Source of the DNA: Patescibacteria group bacterium
GTDB taxonomy: Bacteria > Patescibacteriota > Patescibacteriia > UBA9934
Direction of reading: 5' to 3'
NCBI GenBank assembly: GCA_041660165.1
Contig: JBAZWW010000002.1
Coordinates: forward strand, 43,290 to 107,289
DNA: 64,000 nucleotides
The notes beneath the pieces were generated by a model. The model did not search any database and was not told the DNA's origin. It saw only the letters and a list, made by a program, of their open reading frames with translations. The translations under genes and the position numbers were made by a program. Within the stretch, counting starts at the first letter, position 1. Each line of letters starts with the position of its first letter. Of the stretch, positions 16,706-54,191 are shown one piece after another.

Positions 16706-17530
16706 TTATTTCAACAATTTTCTAACTGTATTATTTGTTATCAACGACTTCATTTGGGTGATAGCAATTTCGTTTAGTTTGAGTAGCCGATCGCTTTGTG
16801 TTATCCCCATCTTAATAAACTCGGCATTGAAGCTTTCGAGGTTCGCTAGACAGACTAGTTGATGGACATCGGCATAATCCCGAATGTTACCGTCTTTGCC
16901 TCTGTGTTTTGCCCGCCATTGTTGAGCGGTCATGCCAAAGAGCGACATGTTGAGCACATCAGCCTCAGTTGCGTACGCTTTAGTTGCCTCGGCGAGAGAT
17001 AGCTTTTGCGGAATGACGACATTCTCTTTTATAGAATCTGTGTGAATCTTGTAGTTAATTTTCGTGAGCATGCGTTTGGCATCCCAGCCTACTGCCAAGC
17101 GTTCGTTTTCTTCTACCTTGAGTCTTTGGAACTCCTTTATGAGATAGAGCTTGAATTCCGGAGAAATCCAGGTGGCGAATTCAAAGGCGATGTCCTTGTG
17201 GGCAAATGTTCCTCCGCCATAACGGCCAGATTTGGTCAAAATACCGGTTGCATTGACTGCTTCAATCCAGCGCTTGGGCGTCAGAGAAAAGCTATTCGCG
17301 CCAGCACTGTTTTTAAACCCCTCGAATTCGAGGGGTTTAAAAGAGGGATTATTAATTTGTTCCCAAATTCCCAAAAATTCAATAGTATCCATTGTTCGCA
17401 TCCAATTCTGAATGAGATGATCCGTTCGATCCGTGTCCGTGTATCTCGCGATATCGGTTAACGAAATATAATCGGTCTCATTTTGGTTGAAAGTATGTAT
17501 TTGCAGTCCCAGGGTAATGATTTTCTTCAT
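16706..17530 (-). CDS. KilA-N domain protein
   Basis: MKKIITLGLQIHTFNQNETDYISLTDIARY... matches the widespread KilA-N domain family. The start is set at the internal MKK. Confidence 0.65.
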   Translation of the reverse strand: MKKIITLGLQIHTFNQNETDYISLTDIARYTDTDRTDHLIQNWMRTMDTIEFLGIWEQINNPSFKPLEFEGFKNSAGANSFSLTPKRWIEAVNATGILTKSGRYGGGTFAHKDIAFEFATWISPEFKLYLIKEFQRLKVEENERLAVGWDAKRMLTKINYKIHTDSIKENVVIPQKLSLAEATKAYATEADVLNMSLFGMTAQQWRAKHRGKDGNIRDYADVHQLVCLANLESFNAEFIKMGITQSDRLLKLNEIAITQMKSLITNNTVRKLLK

Positions 17531-17592
17531 ATCAATGGATGATGCATCAAGCCTCTTTAATGTTACTGAATTCCGTGACATTAGAATGTAGA

Positions 17593-18840
17593 TCATTTAT
17601 TCTCCGCCAGGGTCTTTTCTAGAGTCTGAATGAATTCCTCAATCGGCACTCCCTTGCCCCCGTTGTCTCGCTTGGCATCGAATACGGTTTCAAAGAGAAT
17701 CGACTCGAGTGTCTCCAGCGTCTTCCTGGCCGTTTCTTTCCACGTAAACATTTTTGCCTGTTCAAGCCCCTTCTTGATCAGTGTCGTCCGAAGTTTCTCA
17801 CCATCAGTTTCATGAAAGAGCTGGAGGAGCGCCTGAGTAATATCCTCGACGTTCAACGGATCGACGAGGATGGCAGAGTCGGCGGTTATTTCGGCCAGCG
17901 AGCTGGTAAACGAGGTGATGACGGGCACGCCGGAGGCCATGGCCTCAAGGACTGGCAAGCCGAAGCCCTCGTAGAATGAAGGGAAGAGAAAGGCCGAGGC
18001 ACCTCGGAACACGGCCGGCTTGTGCTTCTCAGGAACGTAGCCAAGGAACCGAATGTCAGCGCCGAACATGGCGCGTTCTTGGGCCTCGAGTACTCTGCGA
18101 TGATGGAAACCATTACCGCCCATGATAACGAGCGGGAGGGGAACACCACCCTTTGACCTGAATGAGTCGTAGGCCTCAATTACGCCCTCTATATTTTTAC
18201 GAGGTTCAAGCGTGGCGGCACAGAGCAAGTACTCGCGGTTAAGGTCATAAGTCGCTCGAAAGGTTTTGTCAGACGGCTGTTCGCGCGGGACAAATTTGGT
18301 TTGATCTACGCCAAGATGCGTGACGGCGATCTTTTCATTGGGGATTTTGTAGTAACCGTGAACGTCTGAGGCAGTTGCCTCGGATACGGCCAGAATCCCT
18401 TGGGCATTCGTGCAAAGCACGTCGATTTTTTGCAACTTTCGAGCTAGTCGGTCTTTTCTAGAAAAAAACTTTGGGAAAATAAGAAAACTGACATCATGCA
18501 CCGTGAATAGGTACGGAAGATTCGTCTTGATGACGTTGTGGTTTGGAAAGATCCAAACGTCGGGCGTTTTCGGCAGAAAGGACTCAAGTGTAAACGGCGA
18601 AAAGGGGAGGAGCAAGAGGAGGGAAAGAAGACGATTAGGAATTCGGACGTCAACCAAGTGGATATTCCGGCGTCTGATTTGCGGTACTCGGCGAAGAGAT
18701 ACCTCGGTTCCGCTCACAAAAACAAAAAAATCATCTTCCGGGCTTTCATCGGCCAGGTTCGTAATAAGCTCAAGGGTGTAATGGCCAACGCCTGTTAACC
18801 GCTCATTCGTGAGCGCCCGGGCGTCGATTGCGATTTTCAT
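17593..18840 (-). CDS. glycosyltransferase family 4
   Basis: MKIAIDARAL start, EGFGLPVLEAMASGVPVI motif. Confidence 0.85.
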   Translation of the reverse strand: MKIAIDARALTNERLTGVGHYTLELITNLADESPEDDFFVFVSGTEVSLRRVPQIRRRNIHLVDVRIPNRLLSLLLLLPFSPFTLESFLPKTPDVWIFPNHNVIKTNLPYLFTVHDVSFLIFPKFFSRKDRLARKLQKIDVLCTNAQGILAVSEATASDVHGYYKIPNEKIAVTHLGVDQTKFVPREQPSDKTFRATYDLNREYLLCAATLEPRKNIEGVIEAYDSFRSKGGVPLPLVIMGGNGFHHRRVLEAQERAMFGADIRFLGYVPEKHKPAVFRGASAFLFPSFYEGFGLPVLEAMASGVPVITSFTSSLAEITADSAILVDPLNVEDITQALLQLFHETDGEKLRTTLIKKGLEQAKMFTWKETARKTLETLESILFETVFDAKRDNGGKGVPIEEFIQTLEKTLAENK

Positions 18841-23662: not shown

Positions 23663-24352
23663 CTAGGCGGGCTCGAAGGGGGTTGCGAGTTCGAGCAGGA
23701 AGTTGTAGAGGTCCACCGTGGAAACGGTGGTTTGCCACCGGCGGTTTTCCTGCAGTTCCAACTGCTTTCGCCGAATGTCAGTCTCGCTGAAGACCTTGGC
23801 CGTGATGGCCTTAGTCGTCCAGAAGTCCAGGATGAGGCCGAGGGTGTTTACGGCCGTTACCGTGGACAGGCTCGGGAGCTCGGTCGTGATGACGGCCCGG
23901 TAATGGTCTGCCCGAGTATTCCATTCACCGCCTTCGAACGGCCTCAACATGGCCTTGACCTTGTCTGGGGTGAGATCACGAATGAGCGTTCCCCCGCGAT
24001 GTCTGAGATCCATCAGGCCATGGAGGAGGCTGAGTCCTGCGGCATCGGCCCGGACGTAGTCTTCAGCCCACGGCTGACGGCGGAAGCATCGATTGAGAAG
24101 GCTCGGCGCCTGTTTCTCAAGGAGGCTGAAGATGAGATCCTGCTCCGGCCGTGTTTTGGCATGTTTCCCGCGCCGGAGAAGCTCTGCCTCTTCGGGGGTC
24201 AGCGGGCGGACGAATTCCTTCTCTTCTTCATCCGGCTCGAAACGTAGTCGGCCCCACGGCAAAGTGCTGGGGGCACAGACGAGCTGAGCGGGAGCGGGCG
24301 AACTAATCTTTGGCGGTTGCGTCGGCCTATTCGGCGTTCGAGCATTGGACAT
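23663..24352 (-). CDS. hypothetical protein (GC-rich island)
   Basis: 229-aa ORF, more protein-like than the overlapping plus-strand ORF. No recognisable domain. Confidence 0.35.
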   Translation of the reverse strand: MSNARTPNRPTQPPKISSPAPAQLVCAPSTLPWGRLRFEPDEEEKEFVRPLTPEEAELLRRGKHAKTRPEQDLIFSLLEKQAPSLLNRCFRRQPWAEDYVRADAAGLSLLHGLMDLRHRGGTLIRDLTPDKVKAMLRPFEGGEWNTRADHYRAVITTELPSLSTVTAVNTLGLILDFWTTKAITAKVFSETDIRRKQLELQENRRWQTTVSTVDLYNFLLELATPFEPA

Positions 24353-24520
24353 GGCGTCCCTCGTTTAGGTGGGCGGTTGGGGTTTTGCCGTGTTCGGGGA
24401 GAACACAGCTGGGCCAGCGTAGAGAAAGGCTGACATTTCGTCAATAAAATTGGCTAATAAAAGGAAGACGCCCATCGTTCGGGGGAACGACAGGCGTTAG
24501 CAAAGATCGGGATCTACCGG

Positions 24521-25051
24521 CTAGTTCTTGGGCAGAGCGCCCATGAGAACGGCCAGGACGGCGGTCTTTTCGGTGAGCTTCTGGAGCTCATGCGTGGGCG
24601 CCAGGAGAACCTTGGTCGCGTAGGCCCTGAGGCTCGAAACACCGATCCCCATTCTACGGTTGACGACTCCATCCGCGATGTCGTCGAGGAACCGGGAGAT
24701 GAGCCCGCGACGCGAAGCGTCGTTGCTCGCGAGGAGATTCAGGATCCCCTCCAGGGAATCGAGACTGATGGCGCGATTCCAACGCTCCTTGAGGAGTCCG
24801 TTGATGATCCAGCAGACCCGTTTCACGTCATCGTCCGTACAGACCTGGTACTGGCACCCCCGTCTGACGCCCAGGGCGCCGGCGTGGAGGCAGTGGAGGA
24901 CCAGGAGGTCGGTTGCATCCGTCGCGGTGCTGATCGCGGCCACGAGGTCTTCCGTGACCGAGTCGGGGGCGACTCGGACGACGTGACGAATCCTGTGGGC
25001 GGGAACGGCCGTGGGGGGTGCTTTTTGTCGTGGCAACTCTGCGGTAGTCAT
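24521..25051 (-). CDS. hypothetical protein (GC-rich island)
   Basis: 176-aa ORF, no recognisable domain. Confidence 0.35.
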   Translation of the reverse strand: MTTAELPRQKAPPTAVPAHRIRHVVRVAPDSVTEDLVAAISTATDATDLLVLHCLHAGALGVRRGCQYQVCTDDDVKRVCWIINGLLKERWNRAISLDSLEGILNLLASNDASRRGLISRFLDDIADGVVNRRMGIGVSSLRAYATKVLLAPTHELQKLTEKTAVLAVLMGALPKN

Positions 25052-25227
25052 GGACTATCCATTGGTGGGCGAACTGTGGCGGTTTTGCGTCCGGGAGGAC
25101 GCTGTATCCAGGAAGGATACGCGGAGGAGTGTACTCCAAAAAATGAAAATAGTCAATAAAAAGTGGACAAAAGCAAACGCCCGCCAGACCCTGTGGGTAT
25201 GGCGGGCGTGCAGACGCCTGAAAGGAG

Positions 25228-25827
25228 CTAGTCCTTCCTGGGCGTGAACGAGAGGTTGAGCCGTTCGAGGACGTAGGCCGGGTCCGTCCGATCGGCGAGC
25301 TTCGCACTGTCCATCTCCGTGGAGATGAGGTACGCGTCGCCCTCCGTGAGGTAGATCTTGTTCGCCATGAAGGCGCAGTCCGGCTTCCTGTCAGCCAGAC
25401 GCTTCATGGTTTCAGCCAGGTCCCTGAGGAAGACCGGTACCACAGCCCGGCGGGCGTGGTCCGTCTTCAGGTCGTGGAGGAAGCTGACGAGCTCTTCGGG
25501 GGTGGCGTCTCCGTCTTTCCTGCGGAGGTTGAGCTCCTCGATCTGCTTGAGCTCGTTCAGCACGGCCCGGGCGTTGGTCTTCTTGCCCTTGCCCATCACG
25601 CCGTTCTCCCGCATGACGGGGATGCACTTGAGGCGGGCCAGGATGATCACGGCGAGCATGAGCTCGCTCAGATCGTCCATGGTGTTGAGCGAGTTCTTGA
25701 GCTCTACGCCAATCGGCACGCTGGCCTTGGGCTTCCGGTTTTGATCAGTGCGCTGGCCCTGGGTTCGGGGAGAGCCCTTGGCCGCGGTTGGCGGGAGATG
25801 TTCAGAGGTAGTCGACGACAGGTGCAT
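25228..25827 (-). CDS. hypothetical protein (GC-rich island)
   Basis: The start is set downstream of a hairpin at 25930..25956. The longer N-terminal extension is unlikely. Confidence 0.3.
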   Translation of the reverse strand: MHLSSTTSEHLPPTAAKGSPRTQGQRTDQNRKPKASVPIGVELKNSLNTMDDLSELMLAVIILARLKCIPVMRENGVMGKGKKTNARAVLNELKQIEELNLRRKDGDATPEELVSFLHDLKTDHARRAVVPVFLRDLAETMKRLADRKPDCAFMANKIYLTEGDAYLISTEMDSAKLADRTDPAYVLERLNLSFTPRKD

Positions 25828-25929
25828 GGAGACCCCAATGCAGTGACGGTTATTTGCCCCGAATGGAGCCGGAAGACGATACTGCCCGGCGGTCAAAATG
25901 TCAATCATTAGCCATAAAACAACGAACGC

Positions 25930-25956
25930 CACCTTCCGGTTAGGAAAGGTGGCGCA
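25930..25956 (-). terminator. hairpin, possible terminator
   Basis: CCACCTTCC-n-GGAAAGGTGG stem between two minus-strand island genes. Confidence 0.35.
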
Positions 25957-25978
25957 CGGTTTGACGAACGGGTTCCGT

Positions 25979-26164
25979 CTAGGTTTCGTCCGCGTGCATG
26001 TGCCCGAGGACGAGCACGCAGGCGCCGCCAGCAACGAAGCCGATGACGACTGACACTTCGTGGCTGACGAGCGAGTTCGTGACCGTGAGTGCGACCACGA
26101 AGGTTCCTGTCACCGCGATTTCTCCTAGGAGGTAGTCTGGAACCATTTTTTTCAAGAACTCCTG
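25979..26164 (-). CDS. small membrane protein
   Basis: MQEFLKKMVPDYLLGEIAVTGTFVVALTV...VVIGFVAGGACVLVL, two hydrophobic helices, 61 aa. Confidence 0.35.
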   Translation of the reverse strand, partial: QEFLKKMVPDYLLGEIAVTGTFVVALTVTNSLVSHEVSVVIGFVAGGACVLVLGHMHADET

Positions 26165-31713: not shown

Positions 31714-31779
31714 ATCACGAAGAATGGTAGCAGGCCCGGCTGATTTCGTAAAGCAAACCATGGTATCCTTTGGGGGATT

Positions 31780-32505
31780 ATGATGGAGAGAGACCAATGG
31801 ATAGAGCGTGCCTTTGCTACCGCGGGAGCGGGTTTTTTCCTCTTACTTCTCGGCTTTTTCTCTTTTCGTATCTTCTCGTATTATCGGCAGATTCAGAAGG
31901 GCGAGATTGACCTTTCCGGCCTGAAGTTCTCCGCCACGGTTGTTCATGCATCTGATCTTGTGGACCTGGTGAAGACGGCCCCGGGAACCGGAGAGCTGGC
32001 CAGCAAAGACGACCCATCGCTAGGTAATCCGGACGCCAAAGTAACTGTAGTCGAGTTTGCAGATTTTGGTTGTTCATTTTCACAGCAAGAGAGCTACGTT
32101 GTCCGGGCGCTCGCCAAAGAGTTTCCTGATACGGTACGGTTCATTTACAGAGATTTTCCACTGCCTGATCTTCACCCCGGTGCGGATTTGGCCTCGGCCG
32201 GAGGAAACTGTGCCATGGATCAAGGAAAATTTTGGGAGTTTCACGATGTGCTCTATGCACATCCGGGTGAATTCACGCAGGATAATCTTGCTGGCTACGC
32301 AGAGGATGCTGGTCTTGAGGTGAACACATTCTCCTCTTGTCTTGCTTCCGGCAGATATCAAACGGAAGTAGCGAATGATCAGGTGGATGGCGTGAACGCT
32401 GGCGTGGTTGGTACTCCCACATTCTTTATTAACGGATCAAAAGTAGAAGGCGCAATCCCGTATGCCATCTTTAAAGAAGCTCTCAAGGCATTTACTCAAA
32501 ATTAG
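31780..32505 (+). CDS. DsbA-like thioredoxin-fold protein, CxxS variant
   Basis: N-terminal TM, then FADFGCSFSQQ where the canonical CxxC appears as C-S-F-S. Confidence 0.55.
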   Translation: MMERDQWIERAFATAGAGFFLLLLGFFSFRIFSYYRQIQKGEIDLSGLKFSATVVHASDLVDLVKTAPGTGELASKDDPSLGNPDAKVTVVEFADFGCSFSQQESYVVRALAKEFPDTVRFIYRDFPLPDLHPGADLASAGGNCAMDQGKFWEFHDVLYAHPGEFTQDNLAGYAEDAGLEVNTFSSCLASGRYQTEVANDQVDGVNAGVVGTPTFFINGSKVEGAIPYAIFKEALKAFTQN

Positions 32506-33946
32506 CGCCGTGGCGCTCATAGCAGCGTACGGGTTTGGCGGTGCCAAATCCGTCCAGCCAGTGTATGCGGAAACGGCTCCTGCTTGTGCGTGTTATTGTG
32601 GAACTCCGGATGCGGGTGCGGTTAAATTTTCAGCCGAGCAGGACGCCGGTGCTTGTCAGGCTTTCTGTACCAGCGTCCAGAAAGATTATCTGGGTTGTTT
32701 TCTCCCTGGATCGCAAAATCCTGAAAATGATCTGAAGTGCTGGACGCAGGATGAGTGTGCTCATTACGCTACGGATAAGATGGGCAATATCACAAAGGGA
32801 ACCTGGGGAGGTCAGAATGAAAAATGCGCCAGACCGTTGTCTAATGCTGATGTGGGATACTGTTACGCTCCCGGCCTGCCCGTTCATCTTGGGGTTCCGA
32901 TCCTTGGCACCGTTACTGTTGGTAGTTTTCCGGAATATCTGGCGCTCGTGTACAATTTTCTGTTGCCGGCCATGTCCCTCATTGCTGTCGTCATGCTCAT
33001 GATTGGCGGACTGGAATACGTGGTTTCCGGAGGAAGTTCAAAGCGGGTTGAGAAGGCAAAGACAAGGATCAAGAACGCCGTGGTAGGCCTCTTACTCCTT
33101 TTTTCCGCCTACACGATTGCGAACTTGCTAGACCCGCACCTGGTGAAGTTTGGCCAGTTGCGCGTTCCCCTGGTGAAGCAAGCGGTTCTTCTTGATCCGG
33201 CTTCTTCTTGCGAAAGTCTCCAGAATTATGGTTTTGAGGTTTCTCCCGGGGCCGGCGCTTGTGGAGAAAAGGGGGTGGTGACGAGCATTGATAACGTACA
33301 GGACGTAGCGAAGAATTCAAATGTAAAAGTGGGGAGCGAGTGTCCCTTTTTCGGATGCGATCTTGGGAGGACGTGCCTGTCCGGGGCCGATGGCAAGGGA
33401 ACGTGCGTAGCCTGTGCCGATGTGAATGCCGTGAGCGCAAGTTCCGGACTTTCCACACTTTCTCTTACGGAGGGGTTCGTGGGTCTTGCCCCAAGCGAAT
33501 ACGCCTGTTCTCAGATCCAACAAGCGACAGATAGCGCAGATCCAGATCCGAAGCATCAATATTTCTGTTCGTACGATGCCAACTATATTCATGCGTGTGA
33601 GAGCGCCGGAGCTTCTGAAGCAACGCCTTACATTGATTGTCCCGCAGATTCTACAGATGCTGGGAGTACGGATGATCCCTGTTCATTTTATGACACCGTC
33701 AATATCCTCCATCATCAGTTCGGGGAAGTATTTTATTCTAAGTCATTGGGTTCGGTCACGGGCGCTGACCTTTCTTTTGCCGCAAAGATTTGCGAGAAGG
33801 ATCCCTGCGGAGTGGCGCGGGCAAGGAACAAGACGTGTAGTTTATACGTGATCACGAACACCATATCAACGCTCGCAAATATTTTTACCGCGAACGAGGT
33901 GAATTTGACGAGTTTGCTTGACGCCCAGTGTCTCACTACGCATTAA
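32462..33946 (+). CDS. Cys-rich secreted/membrane protein with central two-helix hydrophobic hairpin (possible TrbC/VirB2-like pilin core)
   Basis: Signal-peptide-like N-terminus and about 30 Cys. A central LALVYNFLLPAMSLIAVVMLMIGG ... AVVGLLLLFSAYTIANLL pair is separated by a short basic loop. Confidence 0.5.
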   Translation: MPSLKKLSRHLLKISAVALIAAYGFGGAKSVQPVYAETAPACACYCGTPDAGAVKFSAEQDAGACQAFCTSVQKDYLGCFLPGSQNPENDLKCWTQDECAHYATDKMGNITKGTWGGQNEKCARPLSNADVGYCYAPGLPVHLGVPILGTVTVGSFPEYLALVYNFLLPAMSLIAVVMLMIGGLEYVVSGGSSKRVEKAKTRIKNAVVGLLLLFSAYTIANLLDPHLVKFGQLRVPLVKQAVLLDPASSCESLQNYGFEVSPGAGACGEKGVVTSIDNVQDVAKNSNVKVGSECPFFGCDLGRTCLSGADGKGTCVACADVNAVSASSGLSTLSLTEGFVGLAPSEYACSQIQQATDSADPDPKHQYFCSYDANYIHACESAGASEATPYIDCPADSTDAGSTDDPCSFYDTVNILHHQFGEVFYSKSLGSVTGADLSFAAKICEKDPCGVARARNKTCSLYVITNTISTLANIFTANEVNLTSLLDAQCLTTH

Positions 33947-35884: not shown

Positions 35885-35961
35885 GGATCCGTAGCTCAGT
35901 TGGTTAGAGCGCCGAGCTTATACCTCGGTGGTCCCTGGTTCGAGCCCAGGCGGATCCACCA
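35885..35961 (+). tRNA. tRNA-Ile (anticodon UAU)
   Basis: GGATCCG acceptor, AGCTCAGTTGGTTAGAGC D-arm, anticodon loop CUUAUAC, GGTTCGAGCCC T-arm, encoded CCA. Confidence 0.8.
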
Positions 35962-36132: not shown

Positions 36133-36540
36133 ATGCCCCACGAACCTCTCGGATTTTTGCTCGTCCTGGCGCTTCTGTGGTTTGTGTCCTTCTGGATCCT
36201 TGGCGGGGTCATCTTTGCGATTATTGGTTTAGTCCGCTTTTTACGCCTGAACAAAAACCGGTTTAGCTGTCTCTTCACTATCCTTTCAGCTCTCACCGGC
36301 TTTGGCGCTGCTTGGATGGGCCTTCTGGCTGCCCGGGCAAACGATGCTGAGGGCTGTCTTGATAACTCTACTACCTTCACTGGCATCACCCAGTTTTTCC
36401 CAAACCTTTTTTCCTGTTCTTCTCAGGAAGTGCTGTATTCAGCCGGCCTCTGGTTCCTCTTCCTCATGGCCGCCGGCATTGTCCTCCTCTTTTTCTCCCG
36501 CGCCCCAGAGCGCCCAAGGGATATGCATGGGAATGATTGA
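36133..36540 (+). CDS. membrane protein, hypothetical
   Basis: Four predicted hydrophobic segments. Confidence 0.4.
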   Translation: MPHEPLGFLLVLALLWFVSFWILGGVIFAIIGLVRFLRLNKNRFSCLFTILSALTGFGAAWMGLLAARANDAEGCLDNSTTFTGITQFFPNLFSCSSQEVLYSAGLWFLFLMAAGIVLLFFSRAPERPRDMHGND

Positions 36541-49781: not shown

Positions 49782-49976
49782 ATGTCCTGTGTTCTGAAAG
49801 AATACCGTTGCCACGGGTGCCAAAAACTCCTTTTTAAGGGAGTCATCGTGGATAGCGTGATTGAGATAAAATGCCGGACGTGCCACGCCCTCAATACTAT
49901 TGAGGAGCGCAGTGCGAACGAGTATTTGTGCGGGATTGTGCCGTGTCCGCATAGGGTGCCGGTTGGGAAAACCTAG
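49782..49976 (+). CDS. small zinc-ribbon protein
   Basis: CHGC ... CRTC pair, 64 aa. Has faint resemblance to the NrdR N-terminal zinc ribbon. Confidence 0.4.
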   Translation: MSCVLKEYRCHGCQKLLFKGVIVDSVIEIKCRTCHALNTIEERSANEYLCGIVPCPHRVPVGKT

Positions 49977-50000
49977 AAAAATCCATAAGAAGCTCCAGAA

Positions 50001-50022
50001 GCTCACCCCAGGTGAGTTTTTA
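50001..50022 (+). terminator. hairpin plus T-run immediately upstream of the nrdD start
   Basis: CTCACC-cca-GGTGAG then TTTTTATTT, 13 nt before the nrdD ATG. Confidence 0.5.
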
Positions 50023-50034
50023 TTTATTTCTTTT

Positions 50035-51879
50035 ATGAATGAAGCGCTCAAGCAGACAGGAGCCACGGTGGACGTGGGGAAGACCATTGGCGAATACCTG
50101 GCCAAGGCCGATTGGCGGGTCAATGCCAATTCGAATCAAGGATTTTCGCTTGGCGGGATGATTTTGAACACCGCCGGAAAGGTGACCGCCAATTATTGGC
50201 TGTCGCATGTCTACCCGTCCGCAGTGGGTGAGGCGCACCGAGACGGCTCGGTTCATATTCATGACTTGGATATGTTTTCCGGCTATTGCGCTGGCTGGAG
50301 CCTCCGCGCCTTGCTTGAGGAGGGTTTTAACGGCGTAGCGGAGAAGATTGAGTCCGGTCCGCCAAAGCATCTGTCTTCCGCGGTGGCGCAAATGGTGAAT
50401 TTTCTTGGCACGCTCCAGAACGAATGGGCTGGCGCGCAGGCCTTTTCCAGTTTTGACACGTACCTGGCTCCCTTTGTGAAAAAGTATGAGCTTGAAATGC
50501 GGGAAGAGCTGACCGCTTCCGGGGCCACGTTTCCAAGCGAGGCAGACCTTGAAAAATATATTGAGGATCGGGTGTATAAGTACGTTCACCAGCAAGTACA
50601 ATCATTCGTCTTTAATTTGAACATTCCCTCGCGCTGGGGGACGCAGACGCCGTTTACCAATATCACGCTTGACTGGGATTGTCCGGACGATTTGAAGCCG
50701 AAGCGTTTGTTGCTCGGTGGAAAACCCTTTGCGTATACCTTTGGCGAACTAGGGAAACAGATGGACATGGTTAACCGCGCGTTCATTGAGGTTATGATGA
50801 AGGGTGATGAAAAAGGAAGGACGTTTACGTTTCCGATCCCTACCTATAACGTGACTAAGGATTTTGCCTGGGAAGATCCTAAGAACCTTCCGCTTTTCGA
50901 AATGACTGCCAAATACGGCACGCCGTATTTCCAGAACTTTGTGAATTCTGATTTGAACCCTGGTGATGTACGAAGCATGTGTTGCCGGTTGCAGTTGAAC
51001 CTAAATGAACTTAGAAAGCGCGGAGGCGGGCTCTTCGGCTCAGCGGAAATGACGGGTTCGATCGGCGTGGTCACGGTGAACGCAGCGAGAATCGGTTATG
51101 AATACAAGGGCGACCGGGAAGGGTTCATGCGGCGCATTGGCGAACTCATGGAACTTGGTAAAACCTCGCTTGAAATTAAACGCAAAGTAATTCAGGAATG
51201 GATTGATGTGGGCCTGTTCCCGTTCACCAAGCGGTATCTTGGTTACTTGCGCAATCACTTTTCTACTATCGGCGTGAACGGTATCAATGAAGCGATCAGA
51301 AACTTTACGGATGATAAGGAAAATGTAGCTACGCCATGGGGCCAGGCATTTGCAACTGAGATACTCGACTTCATGCGTCTCAAACTTGCTGACTTCCAGG
51401 AAGAGACAAAACACTTCTATAACCTTGAAGCCACGCCAGCGGAAGGTGCAACCTACCGCTTTGCAAAGGAAGACCAAAAGCGGTTTGCGGGCATTCTCCA
51501 GGCAGGAACGTTTGAAGCGCCGTATTACACTAATTCATCTCAGCTTCCTGTGGGTTATACGGATGATGTGTTCCTGGCGCTTGAACTTCAAGATGCCCTT
51601 CAGACAAAATATACCGGTGGAACCGTCTTCCACGCGTACATGACGGAACGTTTGCCAAGCGGAGAGCACTGCAGAAATCTAGTGCGGAAAATTTTGTCTC
51701 GCTTCCGGCTTCCGTATATTACGATCACACCTACGTTCTCTATCTGCCCTAAGCACGGTTACCTCACGGGGGAATGGGACTGGTGCCCCAAGTGCGATAC
51801 AGAGAAGGGCGTGTCTCAGGCTCCGCGTCTAGATCCCGTGATTCGCTTGAAGCACGAAAGCGCGCTCTCCGCTAAATAA
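50035..51879 (+). CDS. nrdD: anaerobic ribonucleoside-triphosphate reductase (class III), core without the glycyl-radical motif
   Basis: Class III RNR length and motifs (CCRLQLNLNEL), C-terminal zinc ribbon CPKHG...CPKCD. No RVxGY glycyl-radical motif before the stop. Confidence 0.85.
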   Translation: MNEALKQTGATVDVGKTIGEYLAKADWRVNANSNQGFSLGGMILNTAGKVTANYWLSHVYPSAVGEAHRDGSVHIHDLDMFSGYCAGWSLRALLEEGFNGVAEKIESGPPKHLSSAVAQMVNFLGTLQNEWAGAQAFSSFDTYLAPFVKKYELEMREELTASGATFPSEADLEKYIEDRVYKYVHQQVQSFVFNLNIPSRWGTQTPFTNITLDWDCPDDLKPKRLLLGGKPFAYTFGELGKQMDMVNRAFIEVMMKGDEKGRTFTFPIPTYNVTKDFAWEDPKNLPLFEMTAKYGTPYFQNFVNSDLNPGDVRSMCCRLQLNLNELRKRGGGLFGSAEMTGSIGVVTVNAARIGYEYKGDREGFMRRIGELMELGKTSLEIKRKVIQEWIDVGLFPFTKRYLGYLRNHFSTIGVNGINEAIRNFTDDKENVATPWGQAFATEILDFMRLKLADFQEETKHFYNLEATPAEGATYRFAKEDQKRFAGILQAGTFEAPYYTNSSQLPVGYTDDVFLALELQDALQTKYTGGTVFHAYMTERLPSGEHCRNLVRKILSRFRLPYITITPTFSICPKHGYLTGEWDWCPKCDTEKGVSQAPRLDPVIRLKHESALSAK

Positions 51880-51904
51880 TTATTGTCTTTATAAAAACGC
51901 TTCT

Positions 51905-52129
51905 ATGGATTCCCTGAATAGTGCCGTGGGTTGCGAGGGCCAGGCTACACTCCCGGAGAGGACGCGGTGCGAAGTGTGGACGCGCGTCATGGGCTATCAC
52001 CGTCCCGTGGCCTACTTCAACATCGGCAAGAAGTCAGAACATTATTCACGCAAGCATTTTGACGCCTGCGTTGACGGCAATTCCGCGTTTTCGGCGCAGT
52101 ACGCTCCGGCAACTGCGGCCTTATGCTAA
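51905..52129 (+). CDS. NrdD C-terminal glycyl-radical domain encoded as a separate ORF
   Basis: RCEVWTRVMGYHRPVAYFNIGKKSEHYSRKHF matches the class III RNR glycyl-radical consensus. It is in a different frame, 25 nt after the nrdD stop. Its stop overlaps the nrdG start (ATGCTAA). Confidence 0.6.
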   Translation: MDSLNSAVGCEGQATLPERTRCEVWTRVMGYHRPVAYFNIGKKSEHYSRKHFDACVDGNSAFSAQYAPATAALC

Positions 52130-52827
52130 TCTCCGGCATCCAGCCCTGCACCTTCCTTGACTATCCGAACAAAACGGCCTGCATAGTCTTCACGCCGGGG
52201 TGCAATTTCCGTTGTGCGTATTGTCATAATCCCGAATTTGTTCTCCCTGAGCGGATTGCAAAATTACGGCCAAACTTCATTCCAGAGGAGACGTTCTTCC
52301 GGTTTCTTGATCGGCGGACAGATCTCCTTGACGGGGTGGTAGTAACGGGAGGAGAACCAACGCTCATGCCGGATTTGCTTGAGTTTTTGCGCAAGGTGAA
52401 GGACAAGGGGTTTAAGACAAAATTGGACACAAATGGCAATCGTCCGGCGGTGCTCAAGCGTGCGCTTGACGAAGGACTTGTTGATTACGTGGCCATGGAT
52501 GTGAAAACCAGCTTGGCCGAGTATAAAAACCTGGCCGGCATTCTGGCTGACCCTGATAAGATTGCGGAAAGCATTGAGATTCTTAAAGCAAGTCCGGTTG
52601 AGAGTGAATTCCGCTGTACCATCCTCAAAGAGTTTCATCCGCAGAGAGTCCTTGATGACATGGCAGAGCTTCTGGCGGGTGCTAAGATTTTTTATCTCCA
52701 AAAGTTTAGACCAGGCGTGACCCTCAAAGAAGAGGCGGGGGGATACCATCCATTTACGAACGAGGAAACGGAGGAGATTGCAAATTTCTTCCGCCAGACC
52801 GTTCCTAGTGTTATTATTCGAGCATAA
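52123..52827 (+). CDS. nrdG: anaerobic ribonucleotide reductase activating protein (radical SAM)
   Basis: CNFRCAYCHNPE CxxxCxxC motif. Confidence 0.85.
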   Translation: MLISGIQPCTFLDYPNKTACIVFTPGCNFRCAYCHNPEFVLPERIAKLRPNFIPEETFFRFLDRRTDLLDGVVVTGGEPTLMPDLLEFLRKVKDKGFKTKLDTNGNRPAVLKRALDEGLVDYVAMDVKTSLAEYKNLAGILADPDKIAESIEILKASPVESEFRCTILKEFHPQRVLDDMAELLAGAKIFYLQKFRPGVTLKEEAGGYHPFTNEETEEIANFFRQTVPSVIIRA

Positions 52828-52828
52828 T

Positions 52829-53323
52829 ATGAAATATACATCTGAGCAGTTGGTGTGGGTCAGTGCGCGGTTTGCCATGGGCTTCATTTTCTTCTGGGCG
52901 TATCTTGATAAGCTGTTCGGACTTGGTTTTGCTACGGCGTCCGGCAAGTCATGGCTTGACGGCGTTTCACCAACTACGGGTTTCCTTGGCCACTCATCGG
53001 GCTGGTTTGCGGGTGCCTTCCAGGCGCTTGCGGGGAGCGGGGTGGTTGATGTCCTCTTCATGTTTGGGCTTCTGCTTATTGGCCTGGCGCTTCTTCTTGG
53101 TGTTGGCATGCGCGTGGCTGGCTGGGCTGGCGCACTCATGGTGCTCCTCATGTGGCTCGCTAAGTTTCCGCCGGTCCAAAACCCCATCATTGATGAACAC
53201 ACGGTCTATCTCATTGTTCTTATCGGCCTTGCCGTGACAAGCACAAAGCCCGGTCGGATTTTTGGCCTTGGTCAGGCGTGGGCAAAGACGGCTCTCGTGA
53301 AGAAATACCCTGTACTCGAATAA
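52829..53323 (+). CDS. DoxX-family membrane protein
   Basis: Four-TM DoxX-like layout. The start is 2 nt after the nrdG stop. Confidence 0.7.
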   Translation: MKYTSEQLVWVSARFAMGFIFFWAYLDKLFGLGFATASGKSWLDGVSPTTGFLGHSSGWFAGAFQALAGSGVVDVLFMFGLLLIGLALLLGVGMRVAGWAGALMVLLMWLAKFPPVQNPIIDEHTVYLIVLIGLAVTSTKPGRIFGLGQAWAKTALVKKYPVLE

Positions 53324-53384: not shown

Positions 53385-54107
53385 CTATTTTTGAGTTGTA
53401 GTATCTACAGGTGGTGTGGCCGGAGCTTGCTCTGCCGGAGTAGCGGTCGTAAGCGCGTCATCAAGGAGTTTCTTAAAGGCCGGATATCCATTTGGATTAT
53501 CAATGGTCTTGCCATTCAAGAAGAACGTAGGCGTGCCGTTAATGCCGGCGCGGACTCCGCCCTGGTAATCTTTGGTGACGGTTGTCTTGCTCTCATTGCT
53601 GTTCATGTACTTCTCAAAGTCATCTACATTGAGGCTGAGGCTTTTTGCATAGCCCTTCAGCGTCTCGCGGGGATCGGGCTGGTCTACCCAATCGCTTTGC
53701 TTGGCGAACAAGAGCTGGGCATATTGAAAGAACTGTCCCTGTTTTCCAGCGGCCTCTGAGGCCCGGGCGGCAATTTCTGCATTAGGGTGTTTGGAGTAAA
53801 TGGGGAAGTGGCGGAAAACGAATCGAACCTTGTCCGAGTAATCCACCATCAGTTTTTCCACGAGCGGAGCATATGCTCCACAGGCCGGACATTGGAAATC
53901 TGAGTACTCGACTAGTGTAACGGCTGAATCAAGCTTACCCGTCACGTGATCCGTGGGCAGGATGTCATTGGCCAGGGGAGAGCCAACCTGCGTGCTGTCC
54001 TGCATCTTGGCCACGAGGACAAGGAAGCCGAGGACGGCAACGATGCCAACTGCCCAGGCAACGATGGTCCCAACCTTCTTCATAACCGTTTGTTTATCCA
54101 TTTGCAT
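53385..54107 (-). CDS. DsbA-like thiol:disulfide oxidoreductase (CPAC active site)
   Basis: N-terminal TM anchor, then YSDFQCPACGAY thioredoxin motif. Confidence 0.7.
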   Translation of the reverse strand: MQMDKQTVMKKVGTIVAWAVGIVAVLGFLVLVAKMQDSTQVGSPLANDILPTDHVTGKLDSAVTLVEYSDFQCPACGAYAPLVEKLMVDYSDKVRFVFRHFPIYSKHPNAEIAARASEAAGKQGQFFQYAQLLFAKQSDWVDQPDPRETLKGYAKSLSLNVDDFEKYMNSNESKTTVTKDYQGGVRAGINGTPTFFLNGKTIDNPNGYPAFKKLLDDALTTATPAEQAPATPPVDTTTQK

Positions 54108-54191
54108 AGTAGGAAAAGGGTAGCACAGCCCCATAAAAAACAAAACGACCCCACTTCGTCCAGCTGAGCTGGACTACGTTGGGGGTCGCTT

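Follow-up and report, generated by a model that had tools for sequence, protein, structure and literature searches.

A DsbA-like protein with a single active-site cysteine encoded upstream of a cysteine-rich, hairpin-anchored protein in a Patescibacteria genome

Introduction

Bacterial DsbA proteins are textbook CxxC oxidases. What a member of this family might do after losing the second of its two active-site cysteines is the question raised by two overlapping genes, called A and B below, in a 64,000-nt stretch of DNA (the window; contig JBAZWW010000002.1 of assembly GCA_041660165.1, positions 43,290–107,289, forward strand) from a groundwater bacterium with a tiny genome. A encodes a thioredoxin-fold protein with C-S-F-S at the CxxC position, and B encodes a large cysteine-rich protein predicted to be exported. 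An earlier annotation made from the letters of the window only (the original prediction) regarded pilin-like fusion proteins such as B as characteristic of episymbiotic bacteria of the Candidate Phyla Radiation (CPR), and the organism is indeed a CPR (Patescibacteria) bacterium. CxxS thioredoxin-fold proteins hold no intramolecular active-site disulfide and form mixed disulfides only, as described for ERp44 (CRFS; PMC3699783) and TMX5 (PMC11443168). The answer favoured here, with a probability of roughly 40%, is that A works with its single cysteine as an isomerase or covalent chaperone dedicated to B.

Results

Two overlapping genes

The arrangement at the centre of this analysis comprises:

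31780–32505, + strand: gene A, membrane-anchored DsbA/BdbD-type thioredoxin-fold protein, 241 amino acids (aa)
32462–33946, + strand: gene B, hairpin-anchored protein, predicted to be exported, 494 aa including 26 cysteines
32462–32505, + strand: overlap, the last 44 nt of A being the first 44 nt of B in another reading frame

The overlap of the A stop with the start region of B had been predicted and is real. It is identical in four of four orthologous loci whose B proteins are 43–46% identical to that of the window, and M1, L4, K5, S8, H10, I14 and S15 at the N-terminus of B are invariant (window plus these four orthologues, n=5). The public gene call for A starts at 31783 (240 aa), and exactly the B protein is already present at NCBI as ‘MAG: pilin [Patescibacteria group bacterium]’. 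Judged by conservation, A and B are genuine genes and not chance open reading frames (ORFs), because dozens of other assemblies conserve both and B has already been deposited.

A DsbA family with a single active-site cysteine

A matches the Pfam families Thioredoxin_4 (PF13462; E=2.5e-25, 90 bits, cut-off 23.2) and DSBA (PF01323; E=6.5e-19, 68.9 bits, cut-off 25.6), bearing out the original identification of a natural CxxS variant of this fold. No DsbC-type N-terminal dimerisation domain was found, Pfam at E≤1 returning only these two families. The AlphaFold2 model (25 homologues; predicted local distance difference test, pLDDT, 88.3) has a long N-terminal helix (residues 2–40) joined by a linker of poor order to a thioredoxin domain that carries a helical insertion. 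Foldseek searches of the PDB matched it with probability 1.00 to proteins including DsbA, TsdA, BdbD and ScsC, the best being Corynebacterium diphtheriae DsbA/TsdA, Silicibacter pomeroyi 3gyk and Bacillus BdbD (E ~1e-12 to 1e-11), with Wolbachia alpha-DsbA, ScsC and BcfH as further structural neighbours, and a profile-to-PDB sequence search places A in the same way. By sequence and fold A is a DsbA/Thioredoxin_4 member that fails the catalytic hallmark of the family, CxxC. Its features, as compared with the 120 closest database clusters (42–93% identity; Patescibacteria/Uhrbacteria where named), are:

31810–31866, + strand: N-terminal hydrophobic anchor, residues 11–29 (AFATAGAGFFLLLLGFFSF), from hydropathy
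32071–32082, + strand: active-site motif C98-S-F-S101 (TGT TCA TTT TCA), at the CxxC position of DsbA
32209–32211, + strand: Cys144 of a non-catalytic pair, in the helical insertion, invariant in all 120 homologues
32338–32340, + strand: Cys187, partner of Cys144, invariant in all 120 homologues
32410–32421, + strand: cis-proline loop G211-T-P-T214, GTPT in all homologues but one (STPT)

The nucleophilic Cys98 is invariant in 120/120 homologues and Cxx[S/T] is found in 117 of them, mainly as CPYS (73) or CPFS (29), the only CxxC members being three with CPYC. In a neighbour-joining tree, which includes a close sister pair of CPNC (L065) and CPNS (L079) and in which the three CPYC sequences are nested within the CxxS clade, the resolving position has undergone at least three independent changes; a further locus (L060) has CPNT. 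All Ser codons examined in orthologues are TCN, a single step from Cys codons, with no recoded stop. CxxS is, as far as alignment and tree can tell, a lineage-wide, repeatedly evolved trait and not a peculiarity of this locus. With Ser or Thr in 117/120 homologues and at least three switches, the conserved function of A does not need the second cysteine; going by these patterns, Cys98 is strongly constrained and the resolving cysteine dispensable.

Two other explanations of the motif were considered and rejected. Among NCBIfam models, both DsbA paralogues of the window come closest to NF041057 (‘Rcas_1661 thioredoxin-like (seleno)lipoprotein’), far below its cut-off, and this match prompted the idea of a recoded or selenocysteine codon at position 101; this codon is TCA here and TCN in orthologues. 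The C144/C187 pair is not a substitute for the resolving cysteine, being found also in CxxC members of other phyla (Chloroflexi, Saccharibacteria and others), a distribution that marks it as an ancestral structural feature.

Repeated loss of the second cysteine, with toggling between CxxC and CxxS, would also be expected if A were a redox-dead remnant, functionless or at most a non-covalent chaperone, under relaxed selection in an anaerobe unable to re-oxidise DsbA, and the organism does appear to be anaerobic (see below). This is extremely unlikely: Cys98, the cis-Pro loop and C144/C187 are invariant over homologues as little as 42% and up to 93% identical, and a column identity averaging 53% over the catalytic domain is unlike that of a decaying gene. 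The DsbA fold, together with the invariant Cys98 and cis-Pro loop, indicates purifying selection on a working thiol site rather than decay.

At the membrane anchor, the number of K+R residues in the N-terminal flank equals or exceeds that in the C-terminal flank in 95/120 homologues (means 2.70 vs 2.17), mildly favouring an N-in/C-out orientation. In most of the 120 homologues the anchor is followed by a juxtamembrane motif, W-R-V-F-x-[FY]-Y-[RQ]-Q-I-[QK]-x-G (31867–31910, residues 30–44). The Rokubacteria locus L053 has a truncated DsbA ORF lacking the active site; an in-frame TGA could account for the truncation.

The cysteine scaffold and hairpin of B

The original description of B as a secreted protein with a signal-peptide-like N-terminus and cysteine-rich domains on both sides of a hairpin stands, with 26 cysteines (5.3% of residues; 10 N-terminal and 16 C-terminal to the hairpin) in place of about 30. 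Its parts are:

32462–32569, + strand: signal-peptide-like N-terminus, residues 1–36, with basic n-region, hydrophobic core and VYA|E, read from the sequence
32570–32881, + strand: N-terminal cysteine-rich ectodomain, residues 37–140, 10 Cys, starting C-A-C-Y-C
32927–33127, + strand: two-helix hydrophobic hairpin with basic loop, residues 156–222
33179–33943, + strand: C-terminal cysteine-rich ectodomain, residues 240–494, 16 Cys

The AxA-type site at the N-terminus is aligned across all homologues compared. The hairpin has hydropathy peaks at ~167–183 and 214–216, and its loop (SGGSSKRVEKAKTRIK) contains six K/R, from which, by the positive-inside rule, we infer a cytoplasmic loop with both cysteine-rich domains outside. 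The hairpin matches PF18895 (T4SS_pilin; E=2.3e-10, 40.8 bits, cut-off 26.6) over residues 160–223 (32939–33130; profile positions 9–71 of 71), as do 14/15 B-family members. The proposed TrbC/VirB2 architecture is in this respect half right: two hydrophobic helices and a basic loop are present and PF18895 is passed, but PF04956 (TrbC/VirB2) remains below its cut-off (12.8 vs 27.9 bits, E=0.14), with only one of the 15 family members reaching E=0.0014. The AlphaFold2 model of B (12 usable homologues) does contain a helical hairpin (helices 156–188 and 193–222), but at pLDDT 57.7 a pilin fold is not confirmed. Foldseek against the PDB with this low-confidence model gave nothing below E=0.5, and the hairpin profile searched against PDB sequences gave no VirB2, TraA or other pilin, only chance membrane-protein matches. 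‘Pilin’ is for B a family label, not a demonstrated function. Hairpins 52–69% identical to that of B are fused to 3D (PF06725) or NlpC/P60 (PF00877) domains in other proteins (P0006, P0010, P0012, P0013), which suggests from domain composition that the pilin-type hairpin may be a portable membrane anchor for extracellular modules.

Neither of the two cysteine-rich domains matches a Pfam family. A word-indexed search with B found four full-length homologues, and a repeat with a 15-sequence profile gave essentially the same 13 proteins; an exhaustive profile search yielded 209 representative clusters at E≤1e-30, mostly full-length, and 20,995 at E≤1e-3, the latter corresponding to the hairpin superfamily. 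In an alignment of 122 representatives, 25/26 cysteine columns of B are 92–100% conserved (N-domain, 10/10 at 92–99%; C-domain, 15/16 at 99–100%), compared with column means of 18% outside the hairpin and 47% within it. The N-domain usually has 10 cysteines; the C-domain has 16 (72 proteins), 18 (33), 20 (11) or up to 34, and this number is even in 128/129 full-length representatives. The even parity speaks for disulfides and against Cys4 metal sites, as do counts such as 18, 22 and 26, none of which is divisible by four; ~13 disulfides (5 + 8) probably lock the two domains. Closely spaced cysteines, such as C-A-C-Y-C, mispair easily and are typical of isomerase clients (DsbC and protein disulfide isomerase (PDI) substrates).

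The first six cysteines of B (32570–32700) follow the pattern CxCxC-x18-C-x3-C-x9-C, with spacing like that of a six-cysteine module repeated twice in the N-termini of the paralogues P0007–P0010. Homology of this module to the N-terminal modules of P0009 is not claimed (BLASTP E=1.9).

The CxFS motif of A resembles the CRFS of ERp44, which retains its clients through a mixed disulfide (PMC3699783), and B carries a pilin-family hairpin; A could in the same way be a retention or assembly factor, holding B or B oligomers at the membrane by a reversible mixed disulfide with one particular cysteine and releasing them only on assembly into a pilus-like or other surface structure. An unpaired cysteine for such retention might be sought in those B orthologues that have 27 cysteines in total, but the 27th lies in the signal-peptide region and no conserved unpaired cysteine is evident, the C-domain count being even in all but one of the representatives and the N-domain usually having 10. 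No type IV secretion system (T4SS) or assembly genes are found nearby either, and such a role is very unlikely.

Conservation of the gene pair

To survey pairing, one genome per GTDB species was searched with a DsbA profile, giving 80 loci, and ORFs at these loci were searched with a hairpin hidden Markov model built from the matches. A cysteine-rich hairpin gene lies directly downstream in 11/80 loci, seven with Cxx[S/T] (L007, L008, L009, L010, L060, L070, L079) and four with CxxC (L021, L023, L028, L065). In one CxxS locus (L034) this position is taken by RpiB/Rpe. The remaining 68 loci, from Chloroflexi, Myxococcota, Acidobacteriota, archaea and other CPR, are all without a hairpin neighbour and have CxxC wherever the motif is readable. 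Four further loci picked from the protein tree have a PF18895 gene immediately downstream of DsbA genes with CPYC (P0056), CVYS (P0091), CKYS (P0062) and CPYS (P0113), and all four loci of the 43–46% identical B orthologues have the same gene arrangement as the window: RNase J, SBP_bac_5 and SecG on one strand, the DsbA-pilin pair on the other, then L19, Cmk and RluD.

Including the window, 20/21 sampled loci of the clade (Uhrbacteria/Magasanikbacteria-like) are paired, 15 with Cxx[S/T] and five with CxxC. The distance from A to the downstream cysteine-rich gene with a PF18895 hairpin ranges from -73 to +161 nt in the 20 paired loci, across which identity to the window falls to ~32% for the DsbA and ~17–24% for B. 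The sister genome carrying the orthologue P0004 has a second pair (L091, 9363–11602) between ClpB-like and RadA-like genes, consisting of a 213-aa DsbA-like protein with C-E-T-C and P0009 (PF18895 hairpin, 533 aa, 20 Cys), overlapping by 4 nt. The original prediction had named co-occurrence across related genomes as a check on the pair; co-conservation is evident both from the clade tally and from this independent second pair. Of the two outcomes named there as refuting, no pilin-like fold on structure prediction and no co-conservation of the genes, neither was obtained. Two unrelated loci with the same gene logic are the best evidence obtained here for a functional link, and the pairing, on the distribution of motifs, predates the CxxS change and occurs at more than one locus. 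A difference in B cysteine pattern between CxxC and CxxS partners was considered and rejected, the partner of a CPYC DsbA (L087) also having 26 Cys.

A-B is the sole + strand unit between two - strand blocks, which, like the second pair and the breaks in synteny described below, counts as evidence beyond mere block synteny. The locus lies among housekeeping genes. secG is divergent from A with ~20 nt between the start codons (31761–31783), and each promoter must therefore lie inside the opposite gene; the stops of B and of the convergent L19 gene are 16 nt apart. No terminator-like hairpin was found in a scan between these two stops, and promoter and terminator counts over the locus were no higher than in shuffled sequence.

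These housekeeping surroundings, the short interval to secG and the conservation of the whole block across Uhrbacteria/Magasanikbacteria-like genomes would suit an A that is a general extracytoplasmic thiol-disulfide oxidoreductase with many clients, of which B is at most one, its adjacency reflecting block synteny; the CxxS member without a pilin neighbour (L034) fits the same picture. However, A and B are adjacent even where downstream synteny is broken (3–4 kb of other genes in L023, L060 and L070; UvrA in L090), and the second DsbA-pilin pair lies at an unrelated locus. Among the large exported proteins of the window only B is cysteine-rich, the SBP_bac_5, DUF4012 and DUF11 proteins having 0–1 Cys, and a separate canonical DsbA (C-P-A-C) encoded in the window could fill the general role. 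A as a generalist is on this evidence unlikely.

Redox and secretion context in the window

Pfam scans of the substantial ORFs of the 64 kb window, among them all multi-transmembrane proteins, and precomputed annotations revealed no VirB4, VirB6 or other T4SS genes, no VKOR or DsbB and no DsbD/CcdA. The link of B to conjugative pili made in the original prediction found no support here, B lying among housekeeping genes with no T4SS gene in the window; the orthologous A-B loci examined are housekeeping blocks likewise. The genes bearing on redox state are:

49900–52827: anaerobic ribonucleotide reductase NrdD (E=1e-169) and its radical-SAM activase NrdG
53385–54143, - strand: second DsbA-type paralogue, C-P-A-C (Thioredoxin_4 E=1.1e-28; hmmsearch with the DsbA profile 1e-44)

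NrdD/NrdG indicate, from gene content, that the organism lives anaerobically; against this background, extensive extracellular disulfide bonding is notable. The CPAC paralogue, whose true start is probably 54107, 54101 or 54083, lies 21 kb from A-B adjoining tRNA-Leu, has no hairpin gene beside it and, in the alignment, lacks the C144/C187 pair. It is a candidate source of oxidising equivalents, and the presence of a canonical CxxC DsbA in the same window makes a division of labour possible. Paralogues with ‘FQCPAC’ are found at several other CPR and archaeal loci (L016, L017, L029, L037, L050). Convergent on the CPAC DsbA gene, and overlapping the end of nrdG by 50 nt, is an ORF for a 181-aa cysteine-free multi-transmembrane protein (52778–53323, + strand) without a family match.

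Absence of VKOR and DsbB from the window of an organism that looks anaerobic (NrdD/NrdG) could also mean that A is an oxidase still, with Cys98 charged as a small-thiol mixed disulfide (with cystine or another low-molecular-weight disulfide) or as a sulfenate and passing this on to B with no need of CxxC, DsbB/VKOR or quinone. For a clostridial DsbA, small-molecule disulfides are able to do the recycling in the absence of a partner enzyme (PMC12453122), and Streptococcus gordonii SdbA is, as cited in the same source, active with a single cysteine. By that citation, however, single-Cys SdbA keeps the C-terminal and not the N-terminal cysteine; the scan for VKOR and DsbB covered a quarter of the 256,942-bp contig, and the CPAC paralogue is at hand for oxidation. 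We consider a charged oxidase quite unlikely.

Other features of the window

Downstream of the A-B locus, a 135-aa protein with three predicted transmembrane segments and three Cys (36133–36540, + strand) has no Pfam or NCBIfam match; phmmer matched it to an ORF in the corresponding place of L007, and gene calls of 129–135 aa, likewise without a Pfam match, are found at the same place in L002 and L087–L089. A tRNA-Ile with anticodon TAT (UAU) is encoded at 35885–35961 (+ strand). This tRNA is uncommon among bacteria, in which AUA is usually decoded by a lysidine-modified CAU tRNA.

Positions 24001–26000 have a G+C content of 0.605, compared with ~0.51 in the rest of the window, and the ORFs in this part (23663–24352, 24590–25159, 25228–26034) have no Pfam match. 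SET-domain, RhuM-family (E=5e-110) and KilA-N proteins are encoded at 3449–5481 and 16706–17596 among housekeeping and glycosyltransferase genes, and may be remnants of mobile or defence elements.

Discussion

The preferred reading, A as an isomerase or covalent chaperone dedicated to B, can be put as a sequence of steps. A and B would form a two-gene operon transcribed away from secG, their overlapping reading frames suggesting translational coupling. B would be exported by Sec and held in the membrane by its hairpin, with the basic loop in the cytoplasm and the cysteine-rich domains outside, and A would be tethered to the same membrane face as these ectodomains, beside the Sec exit site. From there it could scan nascent B, which with its C-A-C-Y-C start and ~13 disulfides would be prone to mispairing. 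Cys98 would attack wrongly paired B disulfides, giving a transient A-S-S-B mixed disulfide, and A would be released by a thiol of B itself, amounting to isomerisation or proof-reading combined with covalent chaperoning. The CPAC paralogue or small-molecule disulfides would supply the oxidising equivalents. Having no second active-site cysteine, A cannot be locked in an oxidised, inactive state, and therefore no DsbD-like reductase would be needed, a saving that would fit a minimal genome. The 26 cysteines of B, against 0–1 in the other large exported proteins of the window, make it the obvious client, as do its conserved cysteine columns and even cysteine counts.

Several points weigh against this reading. 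Synteny across the clade extends to the entire block (TrpRS-RNaseJ-SBP5-SecG / A-B / L19-Cmk-RluD); co-conservation is therefore partly inherited, and the 20 loci are not independent observations. The connection from A to B rests on gene order, from which ‘dedicated’ is deduced, and one CxxS locus (L034) is without a pilin neighbour. Five paired loci keep CxxC, and CxxS is therefore not required for the partnership; the partner of a CPYC protein (L087) has as many cysteines as B, and CxxS could be a neutral loss. A is without the dimerisation domain of DsbC-type isomerases, its flanking charges support the membrane orientation weakly, and with one thiol an isomerase is at risk of getting stuck in mixed disulfides. 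The organism also looks anaerobic, and no VKOR or DsbB that could provide oxidant was found in the window.

With the membrane-anchored or lipoprotein DsbA/BdbD/MdbA-type oxidases of monoderms (C. diphtheriae DsbA/TsdA 4pwp/7unn, B. subtilis BdbD 3eu4, S. pomeroyi 3gyk) A shares the fold, the profile matches, the Thr-cisPro loop and an N-terminal tether; unlike them, A and its relatives have Cxx[S/T] and no DsbB/VKOR partner was found in the window, and alignments give A an extra conserved cysteine pair that the closest solved DsbA-type structures lack. It also differs from DsbC/DsbG-type isomerases, which have an N-terminal dimerisation domain and a CxxC that DsbD keeps reduced, and no DsbD/CcdA is encoded in the window.

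By analogy, the closest functional precedents appear to be disulfide enzymes of pilus and T4SS operons. The T4SS of the F plasmid includes a gene for a disulfide isomerase/chaperone, TrbB, that serves cysteine-rich Tra proteins (PMC11315126). TrbB and Salmonella BcfH (PDB 7jve, a Foldseek match of A) are, like A, thioredoxin-fold proteins encoded beside presumed cysteine-rich surface or secretion clients, with a proposed isomerase and chaperone role. However, both keep CxxC and belong to complete diderm pilus or T4SS operons, whereas A is monothiol, in a CPR host and without T4SS genes in its neighbourhood. TrbB depends on DsbD.

The eukaryotic CxxS members of the PDI family, ERp44 and TMX5 (reviewed in PMC12384036), have the same kind of motif, and client-selective mixed-disulfide chemistry is proposed for A by analogy with them. 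They have PDI a-domain architecture without the DsbA helical insertion and reside in the endoplasmic reticulum/Golgi, and the likeness is mechanistic, with no specific homology beyond the thioredoxin fold.

A study using the profiles PF18895 and PF04956 and those of T4SS-class pilins found VirB2-like pilins in 1,948 CPR assemblies, and the typical ones are described as small and often arrayed near virB4 (bioRxiv 10.1101/2025.01.22.634366). Unlike typical PF18895 pilins, B is 494 aa long with two large cysteine-rich ectodomains, and is single-copy in a housekeeping block with no T4SS genes within ~30 kb.

Literature searches, which leave out most subscription journals, gave no mention of DsbA together with ‘Candidate Phyla Radiation’ and nothing on a CxxS DsbA in Patescibacteria; an earlier description is possible. 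What is new is the combination of a monothiol DsbA with an atypical PF18895 protein, both of known kinds, and not a new category. The original prediction had called a dedicated monothiol partner a new wrinkle: the CxxS protein is real, but the trait is lineage-wide (117/120) and the pairing older than it, given five CxxC pairs, and ‘dedicated’ goes back to gene order.

On a wider view, DsbA in this CPR lineage may have turned into a natural monothiol, reductase-independent isomerase or covalent chaperone dedicated to a 13-disulfide, hairpin-anchored surface protein, each cysteine-rich hairpin protein having its own upstream DsbA paralogue, as a minimal form of oxidative folding for anaerobic, quinone-less, ultra-small cells that may build cysteine-knotted host-contact structures; this scenario we regard as possible but doubtful. 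A large natural DsbA clade in which strong purifying selection keeps only the nucleophilic cysteine would extend to bacteria the single-cysteine chemistry of eukaryotic ERp44, Eug1p and TMX5, and offers a route by which a genome-reduced, apparently anaerobic cell could proof-read ~13 disulfides with no DsbD or VKOR gene visible nearby. It also singles out the B family (at least 209 representative clusters), in which the cysteine scaffold is the most conserved part and which has no known fold, B belonging to the conserved core genome of Uhrbacteria/Magasanikbacteria-like CPR as a surface protein that may serve in cell-cell contact.

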